From the UHGV virus genome UHGV-1610946: a stretch of 13,320 bases of DNA. The stretch is one strand, 5' to 3'. The DNA is from a virus. Under the pieces are notes generated by a model. The model was not told where the DNA came from, ran no database searches, and worked only from the letters and a program-made list of their open reading frames with translations. Below, one piece after another: positions 1,253 through 12,837 of this stretch; position 1 is the stretch's first letter, and every line of letters begins with the position of its first letter. A program made the translations under genes and the position numbers.

Positions 1253-2659
1253 ATGGCTGATATATCAACACCCAACCTCGACTATAACGATATGCTGGAG
1301 GCGTGGGATATTAACGACGCACTGATGGGCGGTACGCTTGAAATGCGCAGGCAGGGGGAAAATTATCTCCCAAAATGGCCTAACGAAGATGAAGACGCTT
1401 ATAAAAAACGCCTGTCTGTGGCTACGCTACTTCCTGTGTATGAAGAAAGCATCAAGCAAAATATTGGGCGCATATTTGCAGAGCCGACAGTATTGAGTGA
1501 GGAAACGCCGGCAAAAATCAGGGAATATGCAGAAAATATCGACATGGAGGGAAGCCGACTGGATGTGTGGGCGCAGCAATTTTTCAGCCTCGCATTTCAG
1601 TATGGTGTGGCACATGCGCTGGTGGACTATCCACGAACGGATATGAAAGAGATTCGGACAAAAGCCGATGAAAACGCGGCCGGTAGTCGTCCGTACGTTA
1701 CGATGCTGAATCCACGCCAGGTTATTGGATGGAAATCGAAAGTTGAAAAAGGGAAAGTTGTTCTCACTGATTTGCGTATAAAAGAGGTCATCATTATTGA
1801 TGGTGATGATTTCGGGCAGAAGAAGGTGGAGCAGATCCGCCATATTATGCCCCGTCGAGTTGAAATTTATCGACGTAGCGAAGGCACTAATGGCGAATCT
1901 GTCTGGACGCTTCATGAGTCATGGAATACCAGCCGTGATGATATTCCTCTGGTAACACTGTACACGAAGAAAACAGGATTTATGCGTGGTACACCGCCAT
2001 TGCTTAATCTTGGCTTGCTGAATATCAAGCACTGGCAAAGCCAGAGCGAGCAGGACAATATTCTTCATGTTGCCCGCGTTCCATTGCTGGTGGCCTACGG
2101 GCTGGACAGGAATGAAGAACTGACGGTTGGTGCATCCACCGCTACGATTTTTGAGGACAGAACAAAAAATGGCCTCGAATATGTTGAACATAGTGGCGCA
2201 GCGATAGAATCTGGCGAAACATCACTTGAGAAGCTGGAAAATCAGATGCGTCATGCCGGCGCTAAACTTCTGCGTGCTGAAAATACATCCACCAAATCTG
2301 TTGATCAGACTAATGAAGAGCGAATGCAGGAAAACTCGCCGCTTTATACAATGGCGAACTCCCTCGAAGATGCCCTCGATAATATTCTCCAGATAATGGC
2401 GGAATGGATCGGAGAGAGTTGCGGTGGCAATGTGGATGTGCGCACTGAACTGGATGTATCTGCCCAGGTGTTTGACTCATCCTCCGCGCTGGCTGTTCAG
2501 TCATTGCGTCAGGGCGGTGATATACGTCAGATTGATGCGATTCGGGTGTTGCAGGCGTTGAAATTTATCGATCAGGATTCCCGTCCAGAGGAAGTGATCG
2601 ATGAATTAAAAAATCAGAGTGTAATGCTGATGGAAATCAATGATGCAAACCGTGAATGA
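1253..2659 (+). CDS. Portal protein (putative)
   Basis: 468-aa ORF starting 2 nt after the terminase stop and lying between TerL and the MuF-like gene, the canonical portal position. Size fits portal proteins. No diagnostic motif was verified from memory. Confidence 0.7.
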   Translation: MADISTPNLDYNDMLEAWDINDALMGGTLEMRRQGENYLPKWPNEDEDAYKKRLSVATLLPVYEESIKQNIGRIFAEPTVLSEETPAKIREYAENIDMEGSRLDVWAQQFFSLAFQYGVAHALVDYPRTDMKEIRTKADENAAGSRPYVTMLNPRQVIGWKSKVEKGKVVLTDLRIKEVIIIDGDDFGQKKVEQIRHIMPRRVEIYRRSEGTNGESVWTLHESWNTSRDDIPLVTLYTKKTGFMRGTPPLLNLGLLNIKHWQSQSEQDNILHVARVPLLVAYGLDRNEELTVGASTATIFEDRTKNGLEYVEHSGAAIESGETSLEKLENQMRHAGAKLLRAENTSTKSVDQTNEERMQENSPLYTMANSLEDALDNILQIMAEWIGESCGGNVDVRTELDVSAQVFDSSSALAVQSLRQGGDIRQIDAIRVLQALKFIDQDSRPEEVIDELKNQSVMLMEINDANRE

Positions 2660-3755
2660 ACGGCTGCGTGATGAATCAATTGCTCATGCAGTCTGGATAT
2701 CCCGCTATAGCACTGGCGTGGCTGCCAGAATGGTGAAAATACTGAATGACAGCGATGCGGAACTTACTGCTCGCCTGCTGATAGCACTGGACAGCCTCGA
2801 TCCAGGTAGTTTTACCGTTAAGCGCCTGGAGTCACTTCTGGCGAGCGTCAGAGAGGTTAACCGCACTGCTATTAACAGCATGTTTACCAGTCTCTCCGGA
2901 GAGCTGAACGAGCTGGCAATTTATGAGGCTGGTTATCAGTTAAGTCTGTTTGATTCTATGCTACCTGATTTTGTTGCTGATGTTCACCCTCTGGTTGGTA
3001 TCTCTCCTGATGCACTTTATGCCGCTGCAATGGCGCGACCATTTCAGGGACGACTGCTCAGTGAGTGGGCCTCAGATCTTGAGGCGGATCGGCTCAGACG
3101 CATAACAAATACAGTGCGTCAGGGTTTTTTGCTGGGGGATACCAATGAGCAGATCGCAAGAAAAATTCGGGGACATGTCAGTAAGGGATTTCAGGATGGT
3201 GCATTGCAGATGAGCCGGGCTAATGCGGCCAGCATTGCAAAAACAGCGGTTGGACATCTTGCTGCTACTGCCCGTGAGAGTTTTGCCAGCGCGAATAATG
3301 ATTTGATTAAGGGTAAGCAATGGTTATCAACGCTTGATAATCGTACTACGCCACAATGTCGAATCAGGGATCGCCTCAAATATACGCTGAATAATAAACC
3401 TGTAGGTCACAGCGTGCCTTATTTGCAGGGGCCGGGAAAAATTCATTTCTGCTGCCGCTCAACGGAAACGTTCATTCTGAAATCAGCGAAGGAACTGGGT
3501 ATTGATGTTCGCGATATTTCCCCGGCTGAGCGGGCCAGCATGGATGGCGTGGTGGCCGGAGATACAACCTACAGGGAATGGTTTTTGCGTCAGCCTTACA
3601 CCAGACAAAAACAGATTGTGGGGGAAACCCGAGCAAAGCTGATTCGGGATGGTGGTATGTCGCCAGATGAATTTTACACCGATAAAGGCGAATGGCTGAC
3701 GCTGAAGCAGCTCCGTGAGCGTGATGCACAGGTATTCAGAAAAGCAGGGATTTAA
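2640..3755 (+). CDS. Head morphogenesis protein, Mu F-like / SPP1 gp7 family
   Basis: 371-aa ORF overlapping the portal stop by 20 nt. Contains LDNRTTPQCR, which resembles the conserved motif of Phage_Mu_F-type proteins. Position between portal and scaffold is typical. The start could instead be a downstream in-frame codon. Confidence 0.75.
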   Translation: MMQTVNERLRDESIAHAVWISRYSTGVAARMVKILNDSDAELTARLLIALDSLDPGSFTVKRLESLLASVREVNRTAINSMFTSLSGELNELAIYEAGYQLSLFDSMLPDFVADVHPLVGISPDALYAAAMARPFQGRLLSEWASDLEADRLRRITNTVRQGFLLGDTNEQIARKIRGHVSKGFQDGALQMSRANAASIAKTAVGHLAATARESFASANNDLIKGKQWLSTLDNRTTPQCRIRDRLKYTLNNKPVGHSVPYLQGPGKIHFCCRSTETFILKSAKELGIDVRDISPAERASMDGVVAGDTTYREWFLRQPYTRQKQIVGETRAKLIRDGGMSPDEFYTDKGEWLTLKQLRERDAQVFRKAGI

Positions 3756-3774: not shown

Positions 3775-3802
3775 AGGCTACCTTCGGGTGGCCTTTTTTA
3801 TT
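3775..3802 (+). terminator. Intrinsic-terminator-like hairpin (7-bp stem, cUUCGg tetraloop, T6 run)
   Basis: GGCTACC(3776-3782) TTCG GGTGGCC(3787-3793) pairs as a 7-bp stem including one G-U wobble, followed directly by TTTTTTATT. Lies 20 nt after the MuF-like stop. Confidence 0.6.
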
Positions 3803-3859
3803 GCTGCGATCCGGATGGTGAGCAGCGTAACTGTCGGAAGACTTAAACCAGGTACTAAT

Positions 3860-4624
3860 ATGAAACTGAAAACGGTCGAGATTAACGGAAAACAATACGC
3901 AGAAATTGATACTGCTGGCCTGCCAGTTTATGTGCACGACGATGGTAAAGAAATTGGCTTCGATGCACCGCTGGCGACAAAAAAAATTACAGAGCTTAAT
4001 AGCGAGGCAAAAAATCATCGCCTGGCTAAAGAAGCTGCAGAGGAAAAACTGGCTAAGTTTGCCGCTATCGAAGACCCGAAGAAGGCGATCGAGGCACTGG
4101 AAATGCTGTCAAAAATCGACCAGAAAAAGCTGCTCGATGCGGGACAGGTTGACCAGGTTAAGGCAGAAATTACGAAAAATTTTCAGCAGCAATTAGATGA
4201 AGAAAAGCAACGCTCTCAGATGCTGGAGAAGCAGCTTTACGATTCTATGATTGGCGGTAGTTTTGCGGGTTCAAAATATATTGCCGATAAAATTGCGATC
4301 CCGGCAGATTTATTACAATCACGCTTCGGGCAGGCATTCAAAGTGGAAGAAGGGAGGATCGTTGCTTATGACGCTTCCGGCAACAAAATTTATTCCCGCG
4401 CGAAGCCTGGCGAACTGGCGCAGTTTGATGAGGCGCTGGAGTTCCTTGTCGAAAATTACCCTCAGAAAGACTACATCCTGAAAGCCAGTGGCAACAATGG
4501 CGGCGGCTCCCGTCCGACACAGCATGATATTGGTCAGAAAACGATGAAACGCTCTGCTTTTGATGCACTGGATGTTGCAGGTAAGCAAAACGCATTGAAA
4601 GACGGTATCACAATCGTTGATTAA
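3860..4624 (+). CDS. Putative head scaffolding protein
   Basis: Lies between the MuF-like gene and the major capsid gene. The product is rich in charged residues, with heptad-like stretches (KEAAEEKLAKFAAIEDPKKAIEALEMLSKIDQKKL) typical of scaffold proteins. Start is uncertain: the listed ORF begins at 3788 inside the terminator hairpin, which is implausible; in-frame ATGs occur at 3815 and 3860, the latter with a weak AGG upstream. Confidence 0.5.
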   Translation: MKLKTVEINGKQYAEIDTAGLPVYVHDDGKEIGFDAPLATKKITELNSEAKNHRLAKEAAEEKLAKFAAIEDPKKAIEALEMLSKIDQKKLLDAGQVDQVKAEITKNFQQQLDEEKQRSQMLEKQLYDSMIGGSFAGSKYIADKIAIPADLLQSRFGQAFKVEEGRIVAYDASGNKIYSRAKPGELAQFDEALEFLVENYPQKDYILKASGNNGGGSRPTQHDIGQKTMKRSAFDALDVAGKQNALKDGITIVD

Positions 4625-4722: not shown

Positions 4723-5862
4723 ATGGCTGGAAATACCCTGACCGGGTTGATCCCGACTATTTATACCGCCCTGGATGTTGTATCCCGTGAGCAGGTAGGT
4801 TTTATCCCTGCGGTAGCAAAAAACGCAAAAGCTGACGCCGCAGCAAAAGATCAGACGGTAACCGCGCCAGTTGCGCCTGAGGCGAAAACCGAAGATATCG
4901 TACCGGGGCCGTCAGCTCCGAATACCGGTGATCAAAATATTGGCACTGTTGATGTAAAAATTACTAAATCCAAAATGGCACCGGTTAAATGGAATGGTGA
5001 AGAACAACTGGCTCTTGGTCCTTCAGGGACTTACAACACCATTCTGGCTGATCAGTTCAAGCAGGCTTTTCGCGCCCTTGCAAACGAGGTTGAGGCTGAT
5101 CTTGGTGCGTTGTATTTCGGTGCTTCCCGCGCCGTGGGAACCGCAGGGACAACGCCGTTTGGTGTTAAAGATGATCTTTCTGATGCTGCTCTGGCTCGTC
5201 AGGTTCTGGAGGATAACGGCGCACCGACAACCGATCTGCAGATGGTGCTTGGCTCCACTGCCATTGCTAATTTGCGCGGAAAACAGTCTGTATTGTTTAA
5301 AGTGAATGAATCCGGCACTGAACAGCTACTGCGTGAGGGCGTGTTGGGGCGTCTGGAGGGATTCAATATTCACAGTTCGGCAGGTGTGAAACGAGCGCCA
5401 AAGGTTGCTGCAACTGGTTATCTCGTGAATGGAGAGAAAAAAGAAGGCGATGTTCTTATTTCCATTGATACTGGTTCGGGGAGTATTTCTGCAGGTCAGA
5501 TTGTTACGTTCGCTGGTGATCCGAATCAGTATGTTGTGGCAGCAGCGACCAGCAATCTGATTACTCTTGCAGCGCCCGGACTGCGTCAGGATCTGGCCGA
5601 TGATACTGCCATCACAGTTGTTGGGGCCTTTACTGCAAATATGGCGTTTGATCGCAACGCGTTTCTGCTGGCATCCCGTACTCCGGCAATGCCGGAAGGT
5701 GGCGATAATGCTGATGATGTAATGAATGTTACGGACCCGATTTCAGGGATTACGTTCCAGATTGCACTGTATCGTCAGTATCGCCAGGTGCGCTATGAAG
5801 TTGGACTGGCATGGGGTGTTTCATCAGTGAAGCCGGCACATGGTTGTCTGATTCTTGGTTAA
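4723..5862 (+). CDS. Major capsid protein (putative)
   Basis: 379 aa from ATG 4723, which has a good Shine-Dalgarno (AAGGA at 4708-4712, 10-nt spacer). The listed ORF starts at 4630 with no RBS. Position is immediately after the scaffold gene. Family assignment is from context only. Confidence 0.65.
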   Translation: MAGNTLTGLIPTIYTALDVVSREQVGFIPAVAKNAKADAAAKDQTVTAPVAPEAKTEDIVPGPSAPNTGDQNIGTVDVKITKSKMAPVKWNGEEQLALGPSGTYNTILADQFKQAFRALANEVEADLGALYFGASRAVGTAGTTPFGVKDDLSDAALARQVLEDNGAPTTDLQMVLGSTAIANLRGKQSVLFKVNESGTEQLLREGVLGRLEGFNIHSSAGVKRAPKVAATGYLVNGEKKEGDVLISIDTGSGSISAGQIVTFAGDPNQYVVAAATSNLITLAAPGLRQDLADDTAITVVGAFTANMAFDRNAFLLASRTPAMPEGGDNADDVMNVTDPISGITFQIALYRQYRQVRYEVGLAWGVSSVKPAHGCLILG

Positions 5863-5871
5863 ACATTCAAA

Positions 5872-5895
5872 CGGGGCTTCGGCCCCATTTTTAAT
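5872..5895 (+). terminator. Intrinsic-terminator-like hairpin (5-bp GC stem, cUUCGg tetraloop, T5 run)
   Basis: GGGGC(5873-5877) TTCG GCCCC(5882-5886) followed by ATTTTTAAT. Lies 10 nt after the capsid stop. Confidence 0.6.
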
Positions 5896-7659: not shown

Positions 7660-8622
7660 GTGAGTTCAGGTGCAAAGGTTATCTCGGCATTTATCCGGGA
7701 GACAGTTGCAGGCACTACGCCAGCAAGTGGTGACTGGAGTTTATTAAAACGCACAAGCTGGGGAGTAAAACCCACCCAGAATAAAGGCGAAAATAATGAG
7801 ATTGGTGGCTCCCGGATGGCTCAGGGGGCGACGCCTGGCACTGTGGATGTCGGCGGTGATGTTGGTACCAAATTTCGCTGGGGTCAACATGATGATTTTC
7901 TTGCATCCTGTTTCGGCGCGGAATGGTCAGGCGATTCTCTGACAATGGGGAATGAGCGAATAACATTTTCTCTGGCGACCTATGCGTCCGATGTCGGAAT
8001 TGCCTCTGTCGTCAGAGGAGCGCAGGTTGGCTCATGGAAAATGCAGATCCCTAACGACGGCGATATTACAGCGACCGTAACCTTTGCCGGGCTGGGCTGG
8101 GAAACAAAGGCCGATGATACGAATTTTATCAAAGGCAAACCTGTGGATAGTGCAGGAAAGTTACGCTATTCGTTTAAGGAGGTTTCAGCAGTAAGCCTGA
8201 ATGGTGTTGCCGGAGGTAACGGTTTTTGTATCGACAGTTTTGATATTCAGTTCGATAACAAACTCCAGACACAGCGTTGTATCGGGACTGGCTCGCCTTA
8301 TGCAGGAGCAAATATTCCGACTACTTTTACACCGTCCGGTACGGTGACGCTTTCATGGTCTAAAGCCGCGTGGGAAATCTGGAGTAAAACACTGACTGGA
8401 GAAACAGTTCCGTTCAGCTTCACGCTTTCGAATGGAGAGGGGGCATACACTTTCAGTTTCCCGAAGGTTCAGGTGTCAGGTGAATGGCCTGATGGGGGTA
8501 ATACTGACATTATCCAGGTTCAATTGAGCATTACCGCAGCAGATGAAGCACCTACGATAACCAGAAAAAAATGCTCCCCGACTGCCGTGATCGCAAAAGC
8601 CAGTGCTGATGCGATTAGTTGA
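7660..8622 (+). CDS. Major tail (tube) protein (putative)
   Basis: 320-aa ORF with GTG start and a strong Shine-Dalgarno (AGGAGG at 7648-7653, 6-nt spacer). Lies directly upstream of the chaperone frameshift pair and tape measure gene, the conserved major tail position. Product is rich in Gly/Ser/Thr. Confidence 0.65.
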   Translation: MSSGAKVISAFIRETVAGTTPASGDWSLLKRTSWGVKPTQNKGENNEIGGSRMAQGATPGTVDVGGDVGTKFRWGQHDDFLASCFGAEWSGDSLTMGNERITFSLATYASDVGIASVVRGAQVGSWKMQIPNDGDITATVTFAGLGWETKADDTNFIKGKPVDSAGKLRYSFKEVSAVSLNGVAGGNGFCIDSFDIQFDNKLQTQRCIGTGSPYAGANIPTTFTPSGTVTLSWSKAAWEIWSKTLTGETVPFSFTLSNGEGAYTFSFPKVQVSGEWPDGGNTDIIQVQLSITAADEAPTITRKKCSPTAVIAKASADAIS

Positions 8623-8634
8623 TTTTCCGTTATT

Positions 8635-8661
8635 CCCCCTGTGGTACTGCACTACAGGGGG
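8635..8661 (+). promoter_or_regulatory. Hairpin after the major tail gene whose 3' arm overlaps the likely RBS of the chaperone gene
   Basis: CCCCCTGT(8635-8642) and ACAGGGGG(8654-8661) are perfect reverse complements (8-bp stem, up to 11 bp with a wobble). No T-run follows. The GGGGG of the right arm is the only Shine-Dalgarno-like element for ATG 8671. Confidence 0.45.
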
Positions 8662-8670
8662 ACGCATTGA

Positions 8671-9132
8671 ATGAGGTTATGGATGTTTATTCTTAATCAG
8701 AAAATTATCATCGGTGGAGAACGCTGGTTTACGCCAATGAAGGACTTAAAACCTGTAGACGGGTTAAAACTGTTGGTGGCAAGCAGCGATAACGATCAGT
8801 ATCGCTCCCGTAATGCATTAATCCGTCGTCACATTGAGAAAATGGATGCCAGTTTGCACGTCGGAACGAAGGAGTTTGATATTTCAAAGGTTTCCGAGGT
8901 AGATTCTGTTGATGATTTACTCATTGATAATGCTGCTCGTTATCTGCTGAAAGACTGGAAAGGGGTTGGTGAACTGGTTAATGGTGCTGAGGTTGCACTG
9001 GAATATACGCCAGAACGAGGGATCGCGCTGCTTAAGCAGAATCCAGAGTTGTACTGGCAGATCCTTGCAGAAGCAGCCAGCATCGCCCAGGGTAAAGAGC
9101 AGCAGAAGCAGGATACGATAAAAAAGCCATAG
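8671..9132 (+). CDS. Tail assembly chaperone (lambda gpG-like)
   Basis: 153-aa acidic ORF between the major tail and tape measure genes. A slippery heptamer lies 4 nt before its stop, and an overlapping -1 frame stays open for about 105 further codons. Start could instead be an in-frame ATG at 8683 or 8737. Confidence 0.6.
   Translation: MRLWMFILNQKIIIGGERWFTPMKDLKPVDGLKLLVASSDNDQYRSRNALIRRHIEKMDASLHVGTKEFDISKVSEVDSVDDLLIDNAARYLLKDWKGVGELVNGAEVALEYTPERGIALLKQNPELYWQILAEAASIAQGKEQQKQDTIKKP
9120..9126 (+). promoter_or_regulatory. Programmed -1 ribosomal frameshift slippery site A_AAA_AAG
   Basis: In the chaperone frame the codons are ATA AAA AAG CCA TAG. The heptamer A AAA AAG (9120-9126) is a classic Lys-tRNA slippery sequence. 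The -1 frame has no stop from 9096 to 9440. Confidence 0.6.
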
Positions 9133-9440
9133 CCGCCCAGCGGTGGTTATCGGAGTTCGGGGGAGAAAGGGGGGAAAAGGCAAGATGGAAGCGAGAAAAA
9201 CTCAGGTTGCCACCGATACCGGAACCAGAAATAGACCCGGTGCTTAAGGAATTGTTGTACGCCTATTCGGTAATATCCCGTGCCCGACGTTATGCTGGAA
9301 TGACCGGGGTGCCTTTGCCTTTATCTCTGACAGAGATAAATGAATATTTAGCCACTCATCCGGTATTGATTGAGCGCGATGAGTTTGAAGCAGTGATCTT
9401 TGCACTGGATGACCAGTATTTTCAGGATCAGTGTGTGTAG
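9123..9440 (+). CDS. Frameshift extension of the tail assembly chaperone (lambda gpT-like part of a G-T fusion)
   Basis: Frame is open from 9096 to the stop at 9438-9440 and is entered by a -1 slip at 9120-9126. The supplied ORF 9207..9440 has no ATG (it begins at TTG) and no RBS, consistent with expression only as a fusion. Predicted fusion is about 255 aa. Confidence 0.55.
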   Translation, partial: KAIAAQRWLSEFGGERGEKARWKREKLRLPPIPEPEIDPVLKELLYAYSVISRARRYAGMTGVPLPLSLTEINEYLATHPVLIERDEFEAVIFALDDQYFQDQCV

Positions 9441-9560
9441 TTGTTAATTACGTACACTCTGTTACAGAGATGTGATGGTGTCTTTAATTAAATCGATGAT
9501 GCTCCTGGAGAAAAGCATTGCGTGGCCTCGTAATCGCTATATCTACTATTATGTCGCCTG

Positions 9561-9587
9561 AAACCCACTTCGGTGGGCTTTTTGTTG
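9561..9587 (+). terminator. Terminator-like hairpin (5-bp stem, cUUCGg tetraloop, T5 run) upstream of the tape measure gene
   Basis: CCCAC(9564-9568) TTCG GTGGG(9573-9577) followed by CTTTTTGTTG. It lies in a 163-bp non-coding gap between the chaperone extension and the tape measure start, 17 nt before that gene's GGAG Shine-Dalgarno. Confidence 0.5.
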
Positions 9588-9603
9588 TCTGGAGTTTTAA
9601 TAA

Positions 9604-12600
9604 ATGGCAGAGCAAACCTCGCGTCTCGCAATAATTATTGATAGCACTGGAGCAAAAAATAATGCTGACAATCTGACCTCCTCATTAGTCAAAATGACGC
9701 AGGCCGGGGAAACTGCTGCAAATAGCGCAGGGAAAGTGACTAAGGCAACAGAAGATGAGAAGAACGCGCTCGCAAAATTAAAAGCAGCTATTGATCCAGT
9801 TGGTGCCGCAATTGATACTGTCGGTCGACGCTATTCTGAATTAAAGAAATTTTTCGATAAAGGGCTTATTGATAAAGAAGAATATGAATTTCTTGTCCGT
9901 AAACTTAATGAAACCACAGAGGAATTGAGCGGGGTTGCGCAAGCGCAGAGAGAAGCCGAGAAGGCCGGAAAACTTGCTGCCGCCCAGCAGGAAGCGCAGG
10001 CTCAGGCCTTTCAAAGAATGCTGGACAAGATCGACCCTCTGGCTGCGGCGCTAAGAAATCTTGAACAACAGCAGGATGAACTTAATGCTGCGTTTGCATC
10101 CGGGAAAATAAATGGTTCTCAGTTTGAGAATTATAGCCGAAAAATACAGGAAACACGGCGAGAGCTTACCGGAGAGGCTCAGGCAGAGCGAGAAGCAGCA
10201 AAAGCGCATGATGAACAGGTTGCTGCTTTGCAACGTCTGATTGCTCAACTTGACCCTGTCGGAACTGCTTTTAATCGTCTGGTAGAACAACAGAAACAGC
10301 TCAATGAAGCAAAAGCTAAGGGGATGCTCTCTCCTGAAATGTATGAGGAACTTTCTGGAAAACTTCGTGCTATGCGGAGTGAGCTTGAGGTTACTCAATC
10401 TCAATTAAGCAAAACCGGAATGTCGGCAAAACAAACGGCTTTTGCTATGCGCATGTTGCCTGCACAAATGACGGATATTGTTGTTGGGTTGTCCACTGGT
10501 CAGTCGCCTTTTATGGTGTTAATGCAGCAGGGCGGCCAGCTAAAAGATATGTTCGGTGGGATTGGCCCGGCGATCAAAGGTGTTGGTTCTTATGTGCTGG
10601 GATTAATTAATCCTTTTACCCTGGCCGCAGCAGCCGTTGGCGTCTTAGGGCTGGCTTACTATAAAGGCTCTCAGGAGCAGGACGAATTTAATAAATCTCT
10701 TATTCTTACCGGAAATCAGTTGGGGACAACCAGCGGGCAATTGGCCGATATAGCTCAACGTGCCGGGAATGCGGCTGATTCGACAACTGGCGCTGCGGCG
10801 GCAGTATTAAACCAGCTTGTGCGTTCGGGAAAGGTAGCGAGCAGTTCGCTGGAGCAAGTGACGACAGCGATAGTAAAAACGAGCGAAGTAACAGGAATAT
10901 CAACCGAACAACTGGTTAATGACTTCAATGAAATTGCAAAGGATCCTGTCAGTGCCATATCAAAACTTAATGATCAGTACCATTTTCTGACAATTGCGAC
11001 TTATAACCAGATTAAGGCGCTACAGGATGAAGGGAACCAGCAGGAGGCCGCCCGCATTGCGACAGAAGCATACTCATCCTCAATGATCCAGCGCACCAAC
11101 CAGATTAAAGAAAATCTTGGTTATCTTGAGGCTGCATGGAAAGCTGTCGCAGACTCCGCAAAATGGGCATGGGATTCCATGCTGGACATTGGCCGTGAGG
11201 CCTCCCTTGATCAAAAAATCTCAGATGTTCTCCGTCAAATTGATGAAATAGAAAAAAATACCCGACCCGGAGTTTTCGGGTTAGGTGGCATTGGAGATGG
11301 CGGAGCTCAAAATAAAAGGCTGGCACGATTAAAGCAGCAATTGGGCGTACTTCAAGCAGAAAAAATTGCTCAGGACGTCCTAAATTCATCAATAAACGAT
11401 TACAACAAGCGACAACAGGAAGGAATTGAACTCAGACAGAGAGCAGATGCCTTTTCAAAACAATATCAGACCCGGGAGCAGCAGAGAGCTAGTGAACTTG
11501 CAAAACTGGAAAAGCTAAAGAGTCAGTATTCAAAGGAAGAATATAATAATTTTATCGCTCAAATAAATGAGCGTTATAAAGATCCAAAGCAACCAAAGGC
11601 GAAAGGTTATTCGGATGATGCTGCCCAACGAATGATTGATCATCTGAATCAACAGAATGCGTTACTAAGTTCACAAACTGAATTAACCGTTAAATTAAGT
11701 TCCTCTGAACAGGAACTGGTTAAGTGGCGTCAGCAGATTGCCGACCTGGAGTCACGACCGTCATCGAAATTAACCCAGGATCAGAAATCGCTTCTCTTAC
11801 ACCGGGAAGAAATAACCGCGTTGATGGAGAAAAATGTTGCGATTGAAAAAAATAACAGGCTAATCAAGGAATCCGCCGAAATAGCTGCATGGCGTGATTT
11901 ATTGCAGGCTTCGATTGATAATCGTCAACAGGGGTATGATATTCAGATTGCTGGTTATGGGGTTGGCGATAAAAATCAGCAACGCCAGCAGGAATTACTG
12001 CGGATTGAACGTGAATATAACAATCAGCGTCTGCAACTTGAACGTGACTATGCAGATAAATCCCGTGGGATGTCAAATCATGTTTTTCAGGAGAAAATGC
12101 AGGCTCTGAATGATGCTCTGGAACGAGAAAAAGAAATTGTCAGACAGAAAAACGAGCAGCTCGATATTCAGGCAGGAGACTGGGTTAGTGGTGCCTCCCA
12201 GGGATTCAATAACTGGCTGGATGACACTAAGGATATCAGTGAGCAGATAAAATCAACCACGACTCAGATGTTTGATGGAATGACCGATGCGCTGGGTGAT
12301 TTTGTCACGACAGGCAAGGCAAATTTTCGTTCTTTCGCTACTTCCGTGATTTCGGATCTTAGTCGAATAGCATTAAAGGCTTCAATTACTGGGATTTTCG
12401 ACAGCATTAGTAACAGTTCTTCGGGGGGGATTTTAGGAACTATCGGGAGTGCTATTAGTAAATTTATTCCGAATGCAAAGGGCGGTGTTTATGAGTCTCC
12501 GTCATTGAACACGTATTCGAACGGTATTTATGATTCCCCGCAATTTTTTGCTTTTGCAAAAGGGGCTGGTGTTTTTGGTGAGGCTGGTCCGGAAGCCATT

Positions 12601-12837
12601 ATGCCATTAACACGAACATCCGATGGTTCTCTTGGTGTCAGAGCTATTAATAGTAAAAGTGGTAATGGAGGCGGAGATATTACCTATGCCCCTGTATACC
12701 AAATCACTATTCAAAATGACGGCCAGAATGGAGAGATTGGCCCTCAGGCAATAAAAGCACTTATGGGGATGGTTGATCAGCGGGTGCAGGGCAATCTGTT
12801 AAATATGCGACGTGATGGGGGAATGTTAAGTGGCTAA
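9604..12837 (+). CDS. Tail tape measure protein (lambda gpH-like)
   Basis: 1077-aa ORF with Shine-Dalgarno GGAG 9 nt upstream, lying immediately downstream of the frameshifted chaperone pair and upstream of gpM/gpL homologues. It has a long coiled-coil-like N-terminal region with three internal repeats of roughly 70-80 aa, a hydrophobic Gly/Ala-rich segment ([35 protein letters not shown]), and a C-terminal [11 protein letters not shown] segment that resembles lambda-family tape measure C-termini as I recall them. Confidence 0.9.

Follow-up and report, generated by a model that had tools for sequence, protein, structure and literature searches.

The window analysed here, a stretch of 13,320 nucleotides, is the late operon of a Rac-type E. 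coli prophage. The gene for the tail assembly chaperone G occupies positions 8671–9132 (+ strand, as do the other oriented features described below unless noted); it matches phrog_313 'Tail assembly chaperone' (E 8e-47) and goes under the name YdaY in phage and E. coli annotation, K-12 YdaY being a 5′-truncated copy of a G chaperone homologue. A slippery heptamer, A AAA AAG, can be read from the sequence at 9120–9126, where a −1 frameshift would give the G-T product. The T extension in the −1 frame spans 9126–9440, ends with a TAG stop at 9438–9440 and matches phrog_1189 (E 6e-36); its match to Pfam Phage_TAC_18 is weak and under the cut-off, and its RefSeq label is hypothetical protein. The slippery site is retained in relatives down to 65% G identity and can be seen in the sequence of L118. 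The tape measure protein (TMP) gene follows at 9604–12837, with an ATG at 9604 and a product of 1077 aa that is matched by Pfam TMP_2 (E 1e-81), Tape_meas_lam_C and TMP_4 and by the PHROG tape measure families; its Shine–Dalgarno sequence, GGAG at 9591–9594, is invariant across 41 aligned alleles. Besides G, T and TMP, the tail tube gene is also supported by PHROG and Pfam. The locus has the order of a G/G-T/TMP unit: a chaperone ORF, a heptamer near its end, an overlapping −1 ORF and then the TMP gene.

Between the T stop and the TMP start lies a spacer of 163 nt (9441–9603), the largest intergenic gap in the window. An earlier reading of this DNA, made from the letters alone (the sequence-only reading), had called the spacer unusually long, and so it is: the T stop ends at 9440, the ATG stands at 9604 and the remaining gaps are of 48 nt or less. 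Its GC content is 40%; the window as a whole has 46.7%, T has 49% and the 5′ end of TMP 46%, a contrast that is weak evidence because the segment is short. Window positions 9100–9700 are 100% identical to several Escherichia phage vB_EcoS records, including vB_EcoS-683R6, and 97.5% identical to the ydaY–ynaA interval of the K-12 Rac remnant. The junction, as a 281-nt sequence, was found in 1,047 of 5,426 complete E. coli genomes. Segment 9423–9574 was found in 1,046 of the 5,426, in one copy each at an identity of at least 95%, and no diverged second copy of it was found elsewhere in these 5,426 genomes. In the K-12 locus (L004; NC_000913.3 1,425,621–1,427,482), ynaA is the N-terminal part of TMP, and the T extension ORF and the frameshift site are unannotated between ydaY and ynaA. 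Nothing relevant was found in the literature on ydaY and ynaA.

The right-hand part of the spacer contains a terminator-like stem-loop, CCCAC-TTCG-GTGGG (9564–9577), which A/U pairs can lengthen to 9561–9581, followed at 9578–9587 by the T-run CTTTTTGTTG (TTTTTTGTTG in the majority of relatives). The sequence-only reading had described this UUCG hairpin and T-run correctly. It had also placed the end of the T-run 17 nt before the Shine–Dalgarno sequence, whereas the run actually ends 3 nt upstream of the GGAG and 16–17 nt upstream of the ATG. With a 5-bp stem (four GC pairs), a UUCG loop and then CUUUUUGUUG, the element has the sequence expected of an intrinsic terminator. Its fold has a ΔG of −9.1 kcal/mol and a z-score of −1.26, the hairpin of alleles with the commoner TTTTTT run reaches about −12 kcal/mol, and a terminator scan of 8400–10000 yielded two sites against 1.3 ± 1.3 in shuffled sequences. 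Taken as a single sequence, the hairpin is within chance; it rises above chance because relatives carry a hairpin and T-run at the same distance, as described below. When at least four GC pairs are required, the + strand of the whole window has only three terminator-like sites (3775, 5873 and 9564), all of them intergenic. K-12, where the hairpin lies at NC_000913.3 1,426,408–1,426,431, differs from the window by a 2-nt insertion confined to the loop, with the stem intact. At the K-12 spacer position no 3′ end is listed in the eLife Term-seq tables, and there was no match in the TERMITe tables.

A variable slot ahead of the tape measure gene

We drew loci that encode G chaperone relatives from genome, viral and metagenome collections and located the T stop and TMP start in each. 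The 261 loci yielded 92 distinct T-to-TMP gap sequences, ranging from 38 to 3,605 nt; these are counts of distinct sequences and not of independent events, since some contigs are present more than once. The shortest gaps, of 38–43 nt, hold a hairpin only (L081, L082, L085 and L118). Gaps of 163–165 nt, the window type, occur in Escherichia, Shigella and one Salmonella phage record, while gaps of 482–3,605 nt hold one to five genes. The cargo of these long gaps includes Ail/Lom outer-membrane proteins, found in E. coli relatives that are otherwise 93–98% identical to the window, together with many lipobox lipoproteins, DUF2545 membrane proteins with a zinc ribbon, KilA-N and ORF6N proteins, parts of toxin–antitoxin systems (YafO, SocA_Panacea and Fic/DOC) and a pair formed by Arc and a P22-antirepressor N-domain. 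Judged by its predicted protein families, this is gene content typical of prophage accessory ('moron') islands. The largest array, that of L214 (3,605 nt), combines an Arc-like repressor, a P22 antirepressor N-domain and ORF6N, an immI-like set amid a tail operon. In the SocA_Panacea array, SocA_Panacea is accompanied by an ORF downstream of it.

The limits of the variable part were located by alignment. In blastn comparisons with the Lom-type relatives L063, L067, L021 and L068, homology ends at 9422, 18 nt before the T stop, and resumes at 9575, within the 3′ arm of the hairpin, to continue through TMP, with flanks of 93–98% identity. The segment in between, 9423–9574 (no strand assigned), is swapped in these E. 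coli relatives for an Ail/Lom cassette of 760–800 nt. Relatives of the Citrobacter type break at 9412–9413 and at 9576–9603 or later. Around at least 14 different cassettes the same G/T genes stand upstream and the same TMP gene downstream, and the flanks are collinear and co-diverge in all relatives.

This pattern bears on the proposal of the sequence-only reading that the spacer is a scar of recombination between a head-proximal module and a lambda-type tail module; on such a view the hairpin would be incidental. Homology does break at the spacer edges, as that proposal anticipated, and the GC content of the spacer is under the window mean; but the breaks lie on both sides, at 9422 and 9575, the two flanks stay together and co-diverge across all of the cassettes, and the position of the hairpin is conserved. 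Homology breaks on both sides of a segment with collinear flanks denote a replaceable cassette, not a module junction, and we regard a module scar as very improbable. Comparison of the junction across relatives gave a mixed outcome for the sequence-only reading in a further respect, in that the spacer is variable and genes are found in the gap there, but the hairpin element is retained. Its observation is confirmed and its interpretation partly supported. The alignments show an exchange of cassettes from phage to phage whose breakpoints fall in the last T codons and in the terminator 3′ arm or T-run, a pattern that fits recombination in the flanks.

Hairpins at the slot and elsewhere in the late operon

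To compare the right-hand end of the slot between relatives, we took the distinct 60-nt sequences upstream of the TMP ATG and scored them, with our own script, for a stem of at least five pairs, at least three of them GC, followed by a T-run. Of the 53 distinct alleles, 49 had a hairpin with a T-run ending 20–27 nt before the ATG; after mononucleotide shuffling of these 53 sequences, a mean of 1.5 and a maximum of 5 had one. The stems fall into at least eight unrelated types (CCCAC, GCCCGG, GCCTCGG, ACCTCGC, ACCCGC, GCCGC, GGCCGCG and GGCCCCGC). Despite these differing stems, the cassette types have in common the T-run and a (T)GCCCGGAG ribosome-binding site. Pairing is also preserved through stem changes, as in CCTCGC/GCGGGG compared with GCGAGG, and GCCCGG/CCGGGT compared with GCCTCGG/CCGGGGC. 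Hairpins were counted per sequence by script because those of different cassettes are non-homologous and out of register, so that RNAalifold, run on 41 tails aligned with MAFFT, found no consensus structure.

Internal cargo genes of the arrays each have their own terminator, in several cases (L087, L008, L214 and L237) of the CCCAC/GTGGG type, which suggests that the terminator of the window formerly closed a cargo gene. In L090 and L133 the cargo is on the opposite strand, facing away from TMP, and the right-end hairpin is degenerate. The cargo-less L081 and L118 both have a good hairpin directly between the end of T and the ribosome-binding site of TMP; the stem differs between them on both sides (GCCCGG/CCGGGT in L081 and GCCTCGG/CCGGGGC in L118) with pairing kept, in a setting where the flanking proteins are 54–66% identical. 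That cargo-less relatives retain the hairpin suggests a role independent of cargo. Four arrays (L121, L207, L007 and L249) carry a hairpin of the cargo-less type, GCCTCGG-N4-6-CCGGGGC followed by T6, within the first 20 nt after the T stop and a second terminator at the right edge, an arrangement suggesting that cargo entered downstream of a resident terminator and ahead of the TMP ribosome-binding site. In L081, the terminator's 3′ arm (CCGGGT and the T-run) has a second possible partner in a GCCCGG overlapping the TMP Shine–Dalgarno sequence (4789–4821, ΔG −19.5, z −3.55); with two GCCCGG copies, the terminator and the hairpin that sequesters the Shine–Dalgarno sequence are mutually exclusive. 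Other cassette types are without such an alternative.

Several other gaps of the late operon also contain hairpins. At 3775–3794, in a 32-nt gap between ORF 2640–3755 and ORF 3788–4624, there is a strong terminator-like hairpin, AGGCTACC-TTCG-GGTGGCCT followed by T6 (ΔG −13.8, z −4.2). Directly 3′ of the major capsid gene (stop 5862) lies GGGGC-TTCG-GCCCC followed by ATTTTT (5873–5886), and this post-capsid hairpin is conserved in the distant relatives L081, L118, L244, L211 and L007. The 48-nt gap between the tail tube and G chaperone genes holds a 12-pair hairpin without a T-run (8634–8662, ΔG −22.2, z −4.05); at the tube/G chaperone junction of L081 there is a terminator-like hairpin with a T-run (3949–3978). 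In relatives of the Citrobacter type, nucleotide homology also breaks at the tube/G junction and after the capsid gene.

One reading of these hairpins, which takes up the second proposal of the sequence-only reading, a regulatory stop on tape measure expression, is that they punctuate the operon: the hairpin and T-run before TMP would be a resident, cargo-independent element of the late operon that lowers the output of TMP and the tail tip, with cargo accumulating alongside. It could act through partial termination or through 3′ stabilization of the message from the tube and chaperone genes upstream, and it is compatible with a cargo slot. The retention of pairing in cargo-less relatives, the persistence of a T-proximal hairpin at the left edge of the four arrays, the presence of a hairpin in every larger gap of the late operon and the maintenance of the post-capsid hairpin in distant relatives all point in this direction. 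However, RNA polymerase modified by the Q protein, for which a gene is annotated here, is expected from established lambda biology to ignore intrinsic terminators; HK022 is without such an element at the junction, and lambda is not known to have one; and the independent cargo-less lineages number just two or three. On balance, we consider attenuation of this kind possible but on the unlikely side.

Contents of the window's own cassette

The left-hand part of the spacer, of about 120 nt, has few features. An inverted repeat, CTCTG-TTA-CAGAG (9457–9469), is present as the sequence-only reading had described; it has 5 bp, lies in an AT-rich context without a T-run and is probably a chance occurrence. 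The spacer as a whole folds no better than shuffled sequences (z −1.19), and on this ground we set aside both a structured RNA and an anti-Shine–Dalgarno pairing between GCUCC at 9500–9504 and the Shine–Dalgarno sequence. When the left ~120 nt were compared by distant blastn with phages, plasmids and E. coli genomes, the same locus alone was returned; blastn-short comparison with the other cassettes matched the hairpin only, and blastx against 281 cargo ORFs gave no match.

A candidate for a product of its own is a 29-codon ORF (9472–9561) with a GTG start, a weak Shine–Dalgarno sequence and a stop 2 nt before the hairpin, a placement that genuine cargo genes also have. Its layout is that of HK97 gene 15 (see below), with a short leader, a small ORF, a terminator and then the TMP ribosome-binding site, and the spacer is nearly invariant in approximately 1,046 E. 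coli genomes; it could conceivably encode a 29-aa peptide or, given a weak Rfam match to isrB at 9511–9583, a small RNA of about 100 nt ended by the terminator. The ORF, however, has no PHROG or Pfam match, tblastn found the identical locus only and no diverged homologue, and no gene is annotated there in curated K-12 (NC_000913.3). Variants in relatives include ATG9475 to ATA, a TGG to TGA nonsense change (L016) and a Pro to Leu replacement. We conclude that the ORF is probably not a gene. Rfam searches of 8500–10000 and 9400–9620 at permissive thresholds gave sub-threshold matches only; the Hfq-binding sRNA isrB (RF01386) was rejected at 15.8 bits against a gathering threshold of 35 (E 1.1–7.3), with an alignment that covers the terminator hairpin alone and lacks the 5′ helix of the model.

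Nor was a sigma-70-like promoter found by a consensus scan of the + strand between 9380 and 9560. This result is weak, because the same crude scan found none in the gene-bearing cassettes of relatives either. On the minus strand, from 9447 to 9418, there is a promoter-like TTAACA-18-GAAAAT (9 of 12 matches) directed antisense into the T ORF, which is within chance; the same site is called in K-12 (L004, 2296 to 2267).

The near-invariance of the spacer has another explanation. Positions 9320–10040 (about 700 nt) form a mosaic block that is 97–100% identical in L072, L073, L074, L077 and L078, while the flanks are about 90% identical, which indicates that a recent exchange ran from the 3′ end of T across the spacer into the 5′ end of TMP. 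The invariance is accounted for by this block and is therefore uninformative on selection. (In the same five relatives, whose G is about 90% identical, an internal stop or frame change is present in G/T and the T extension is of 68 codons.) Taking these observations together, we think it improbable that the spacer encodes a small product of its own. The cassette of the window is most likely non-coding leftover DNA with a retained terminator.

The spacer as a probable short allele of a moron slot

The reading we favour, with a probability of about 0.68, is that the spacer is a short, cargo-less allele of a hypervariable 'moron' slot that Rac-type and related enterobacterial siphophages have between the G-T stop and the TMP start, and that its right end is closed by a putative intrinsic terminator abutting the TMP ribosome-binding site. 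Here the slot would consist of about 120 nt of non-coding DNA plus the terminator, and its contents would most probably be the remains of a cargo gene that was lost while its terminator stayed in place. In a lysogen, this terminator would stop transcripts begun in or upstream of the slot before they reach TMP and the distal tail genes. In the lytic cycle, RNA polymerase that has been modified by Q, the antiterminator of the phage, would read through it; this step follows from established lambda biology and from the annotation, in the intact prophage, of a Q antitermination protein ahead of the lysis and late genes. We infer terminator activity from the sequence of the hairpin, which is short, with five GC-rich pairs and a ΔG of about −9 to −12 kcal/mol. 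In the window's own cassette neither a + strand promoter nor a gene was detected, which leaves the terminator without an obvious local transcript to act on.

The word 'moron' was coined for gene 15 of phage HK97. This gene is said to have been treated as a moron by Juhala et al. in 2000 and by Cumby et al. in 2012. As the first moron, gene 15 is situated between the genes for the tail chaperone and for TMP, and morons have their own promoter and their own terminator (PMC3594210). In the HK97 record, the G-T stop is followed by 57 nt, gene 15 (62 aa), an annotated putative terminator, 12 nt and the TMP ATG, whereas the HK022 record has a gap of 19 nt at the same junction, without a hairpin. The likeness to the window is close, in that both systems occupy the same position between chaperone and TMP and run from the chaperone stop through a short leader, a small ORF and a terminator to a TMP start 12–17 nt further on. 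An insert-free relative also exists for both: HK022 for HK97, and L081 and L118 for the lineage of the window. The systems differ in that gp15 is the product of a real gene, a superinfection-exclusion protein expressed from the prophage, whereas the cassette of the window is without a supported gene or promoter, and in that the empty site of HK022 is without a hairpin whereas those of the window lineage have one. The HK97 cassette and that of the window have no sequence similarity.

Set against the features of a moron as defined by Hendrix and Juhala and given in PMC3594210, the cassette of the window is extra DNA (163 nt, compared with 38–43 nt in the hairpin-only relatives), has a terminator by sequence criteria and has a base composition that differs from its surroundings, at 40% GC in a short segment. 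It lacks a supported gene, the 29-codon ORF being the only candidate, and a promoter of its own, by the crude scan described above. Without these two features, it is a near-empty allele of a moron slot and not a moron.

Other known systems offer partial parallels. As in the late operon of lambda-type phages, the operon here is long, has a Q gene upstream and, as read from its sequence, contains terminator-like hairpins. Lambda has T next to H, and its lom gene is located downstream of J. Close relatives of the window carry Ail/Lom-family cargo and in this resemble phages with prophage-expressed morons of the lom/bor type; in contrast to lambda, their Lom-like gene sits in the slot between T and TMP and not downstream of J. 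Accessory and defence hotspots in P2 and P4 are reportedly the subject of Rousset et al. 2022, a work that appears in the reference list of PMC11364771, and moron hotspots are described in Burkholderia (PMC2920897). The slot is like these phage and satellite hotspots in being a fixed site between core genes whose cargo differs by relative and includes toxin–antitoxin and envelope proteins. It differs from them in its site, the chaperone/TMP junction, and in that its cargo is known by family only. The kind of slot is therefore already known and no new kind of element is involved; this member of it is unannotated in Rac and K-12.

A broader reading can be built on the same observations. The terminator and ribosome-binding site before TMP may together be an old, selected feature of the whole lineage with two roles, serving as a cargo-independent attenuator or mRNA-end element and as a docking joint for the capture of cargo. 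Recombination in the T-run/GCCCGGAG sequence that the alleles share would have placed units of gene plus terminator to the right of the resident T-proximal terminator (GCCTCGG...CCGGGGC) and to the left of the TMP ribosome-binding site, and the hairpins that follow the capsid and tube genes would form one series with the hairpin that precedes TMP. We offer this tentatively, as a possibility with the odds against it. If true, it would mean that terminators within the structural operons of phages both punctuate expression and set where accessory islands grow.

The reading of the spacer as a cargo-less allele of a moron slot has consequences for the annotation of K-12 and for the wider family. 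The unannotated stretch of 165 nt between ydaY and ynaA in K-12 Rac now has an explanation, and ydaY, the unannotated T ORF and ynaA are remnants of one G/G-T/TMP unit. The chaperone/TMP junction of Rac-type and related Citrobacter and Escherichia prophages is a rich accessory-gene island with at least 14 cassette types, mostly of envelope proteins and toxin–antitoxin modules, which makes the slot a useful place to hunt for superinfection-exclusion or defence genes. Its empty, short and loaded alleles also provide a natural series for the study of terminators inside a Q-dependent late operon.
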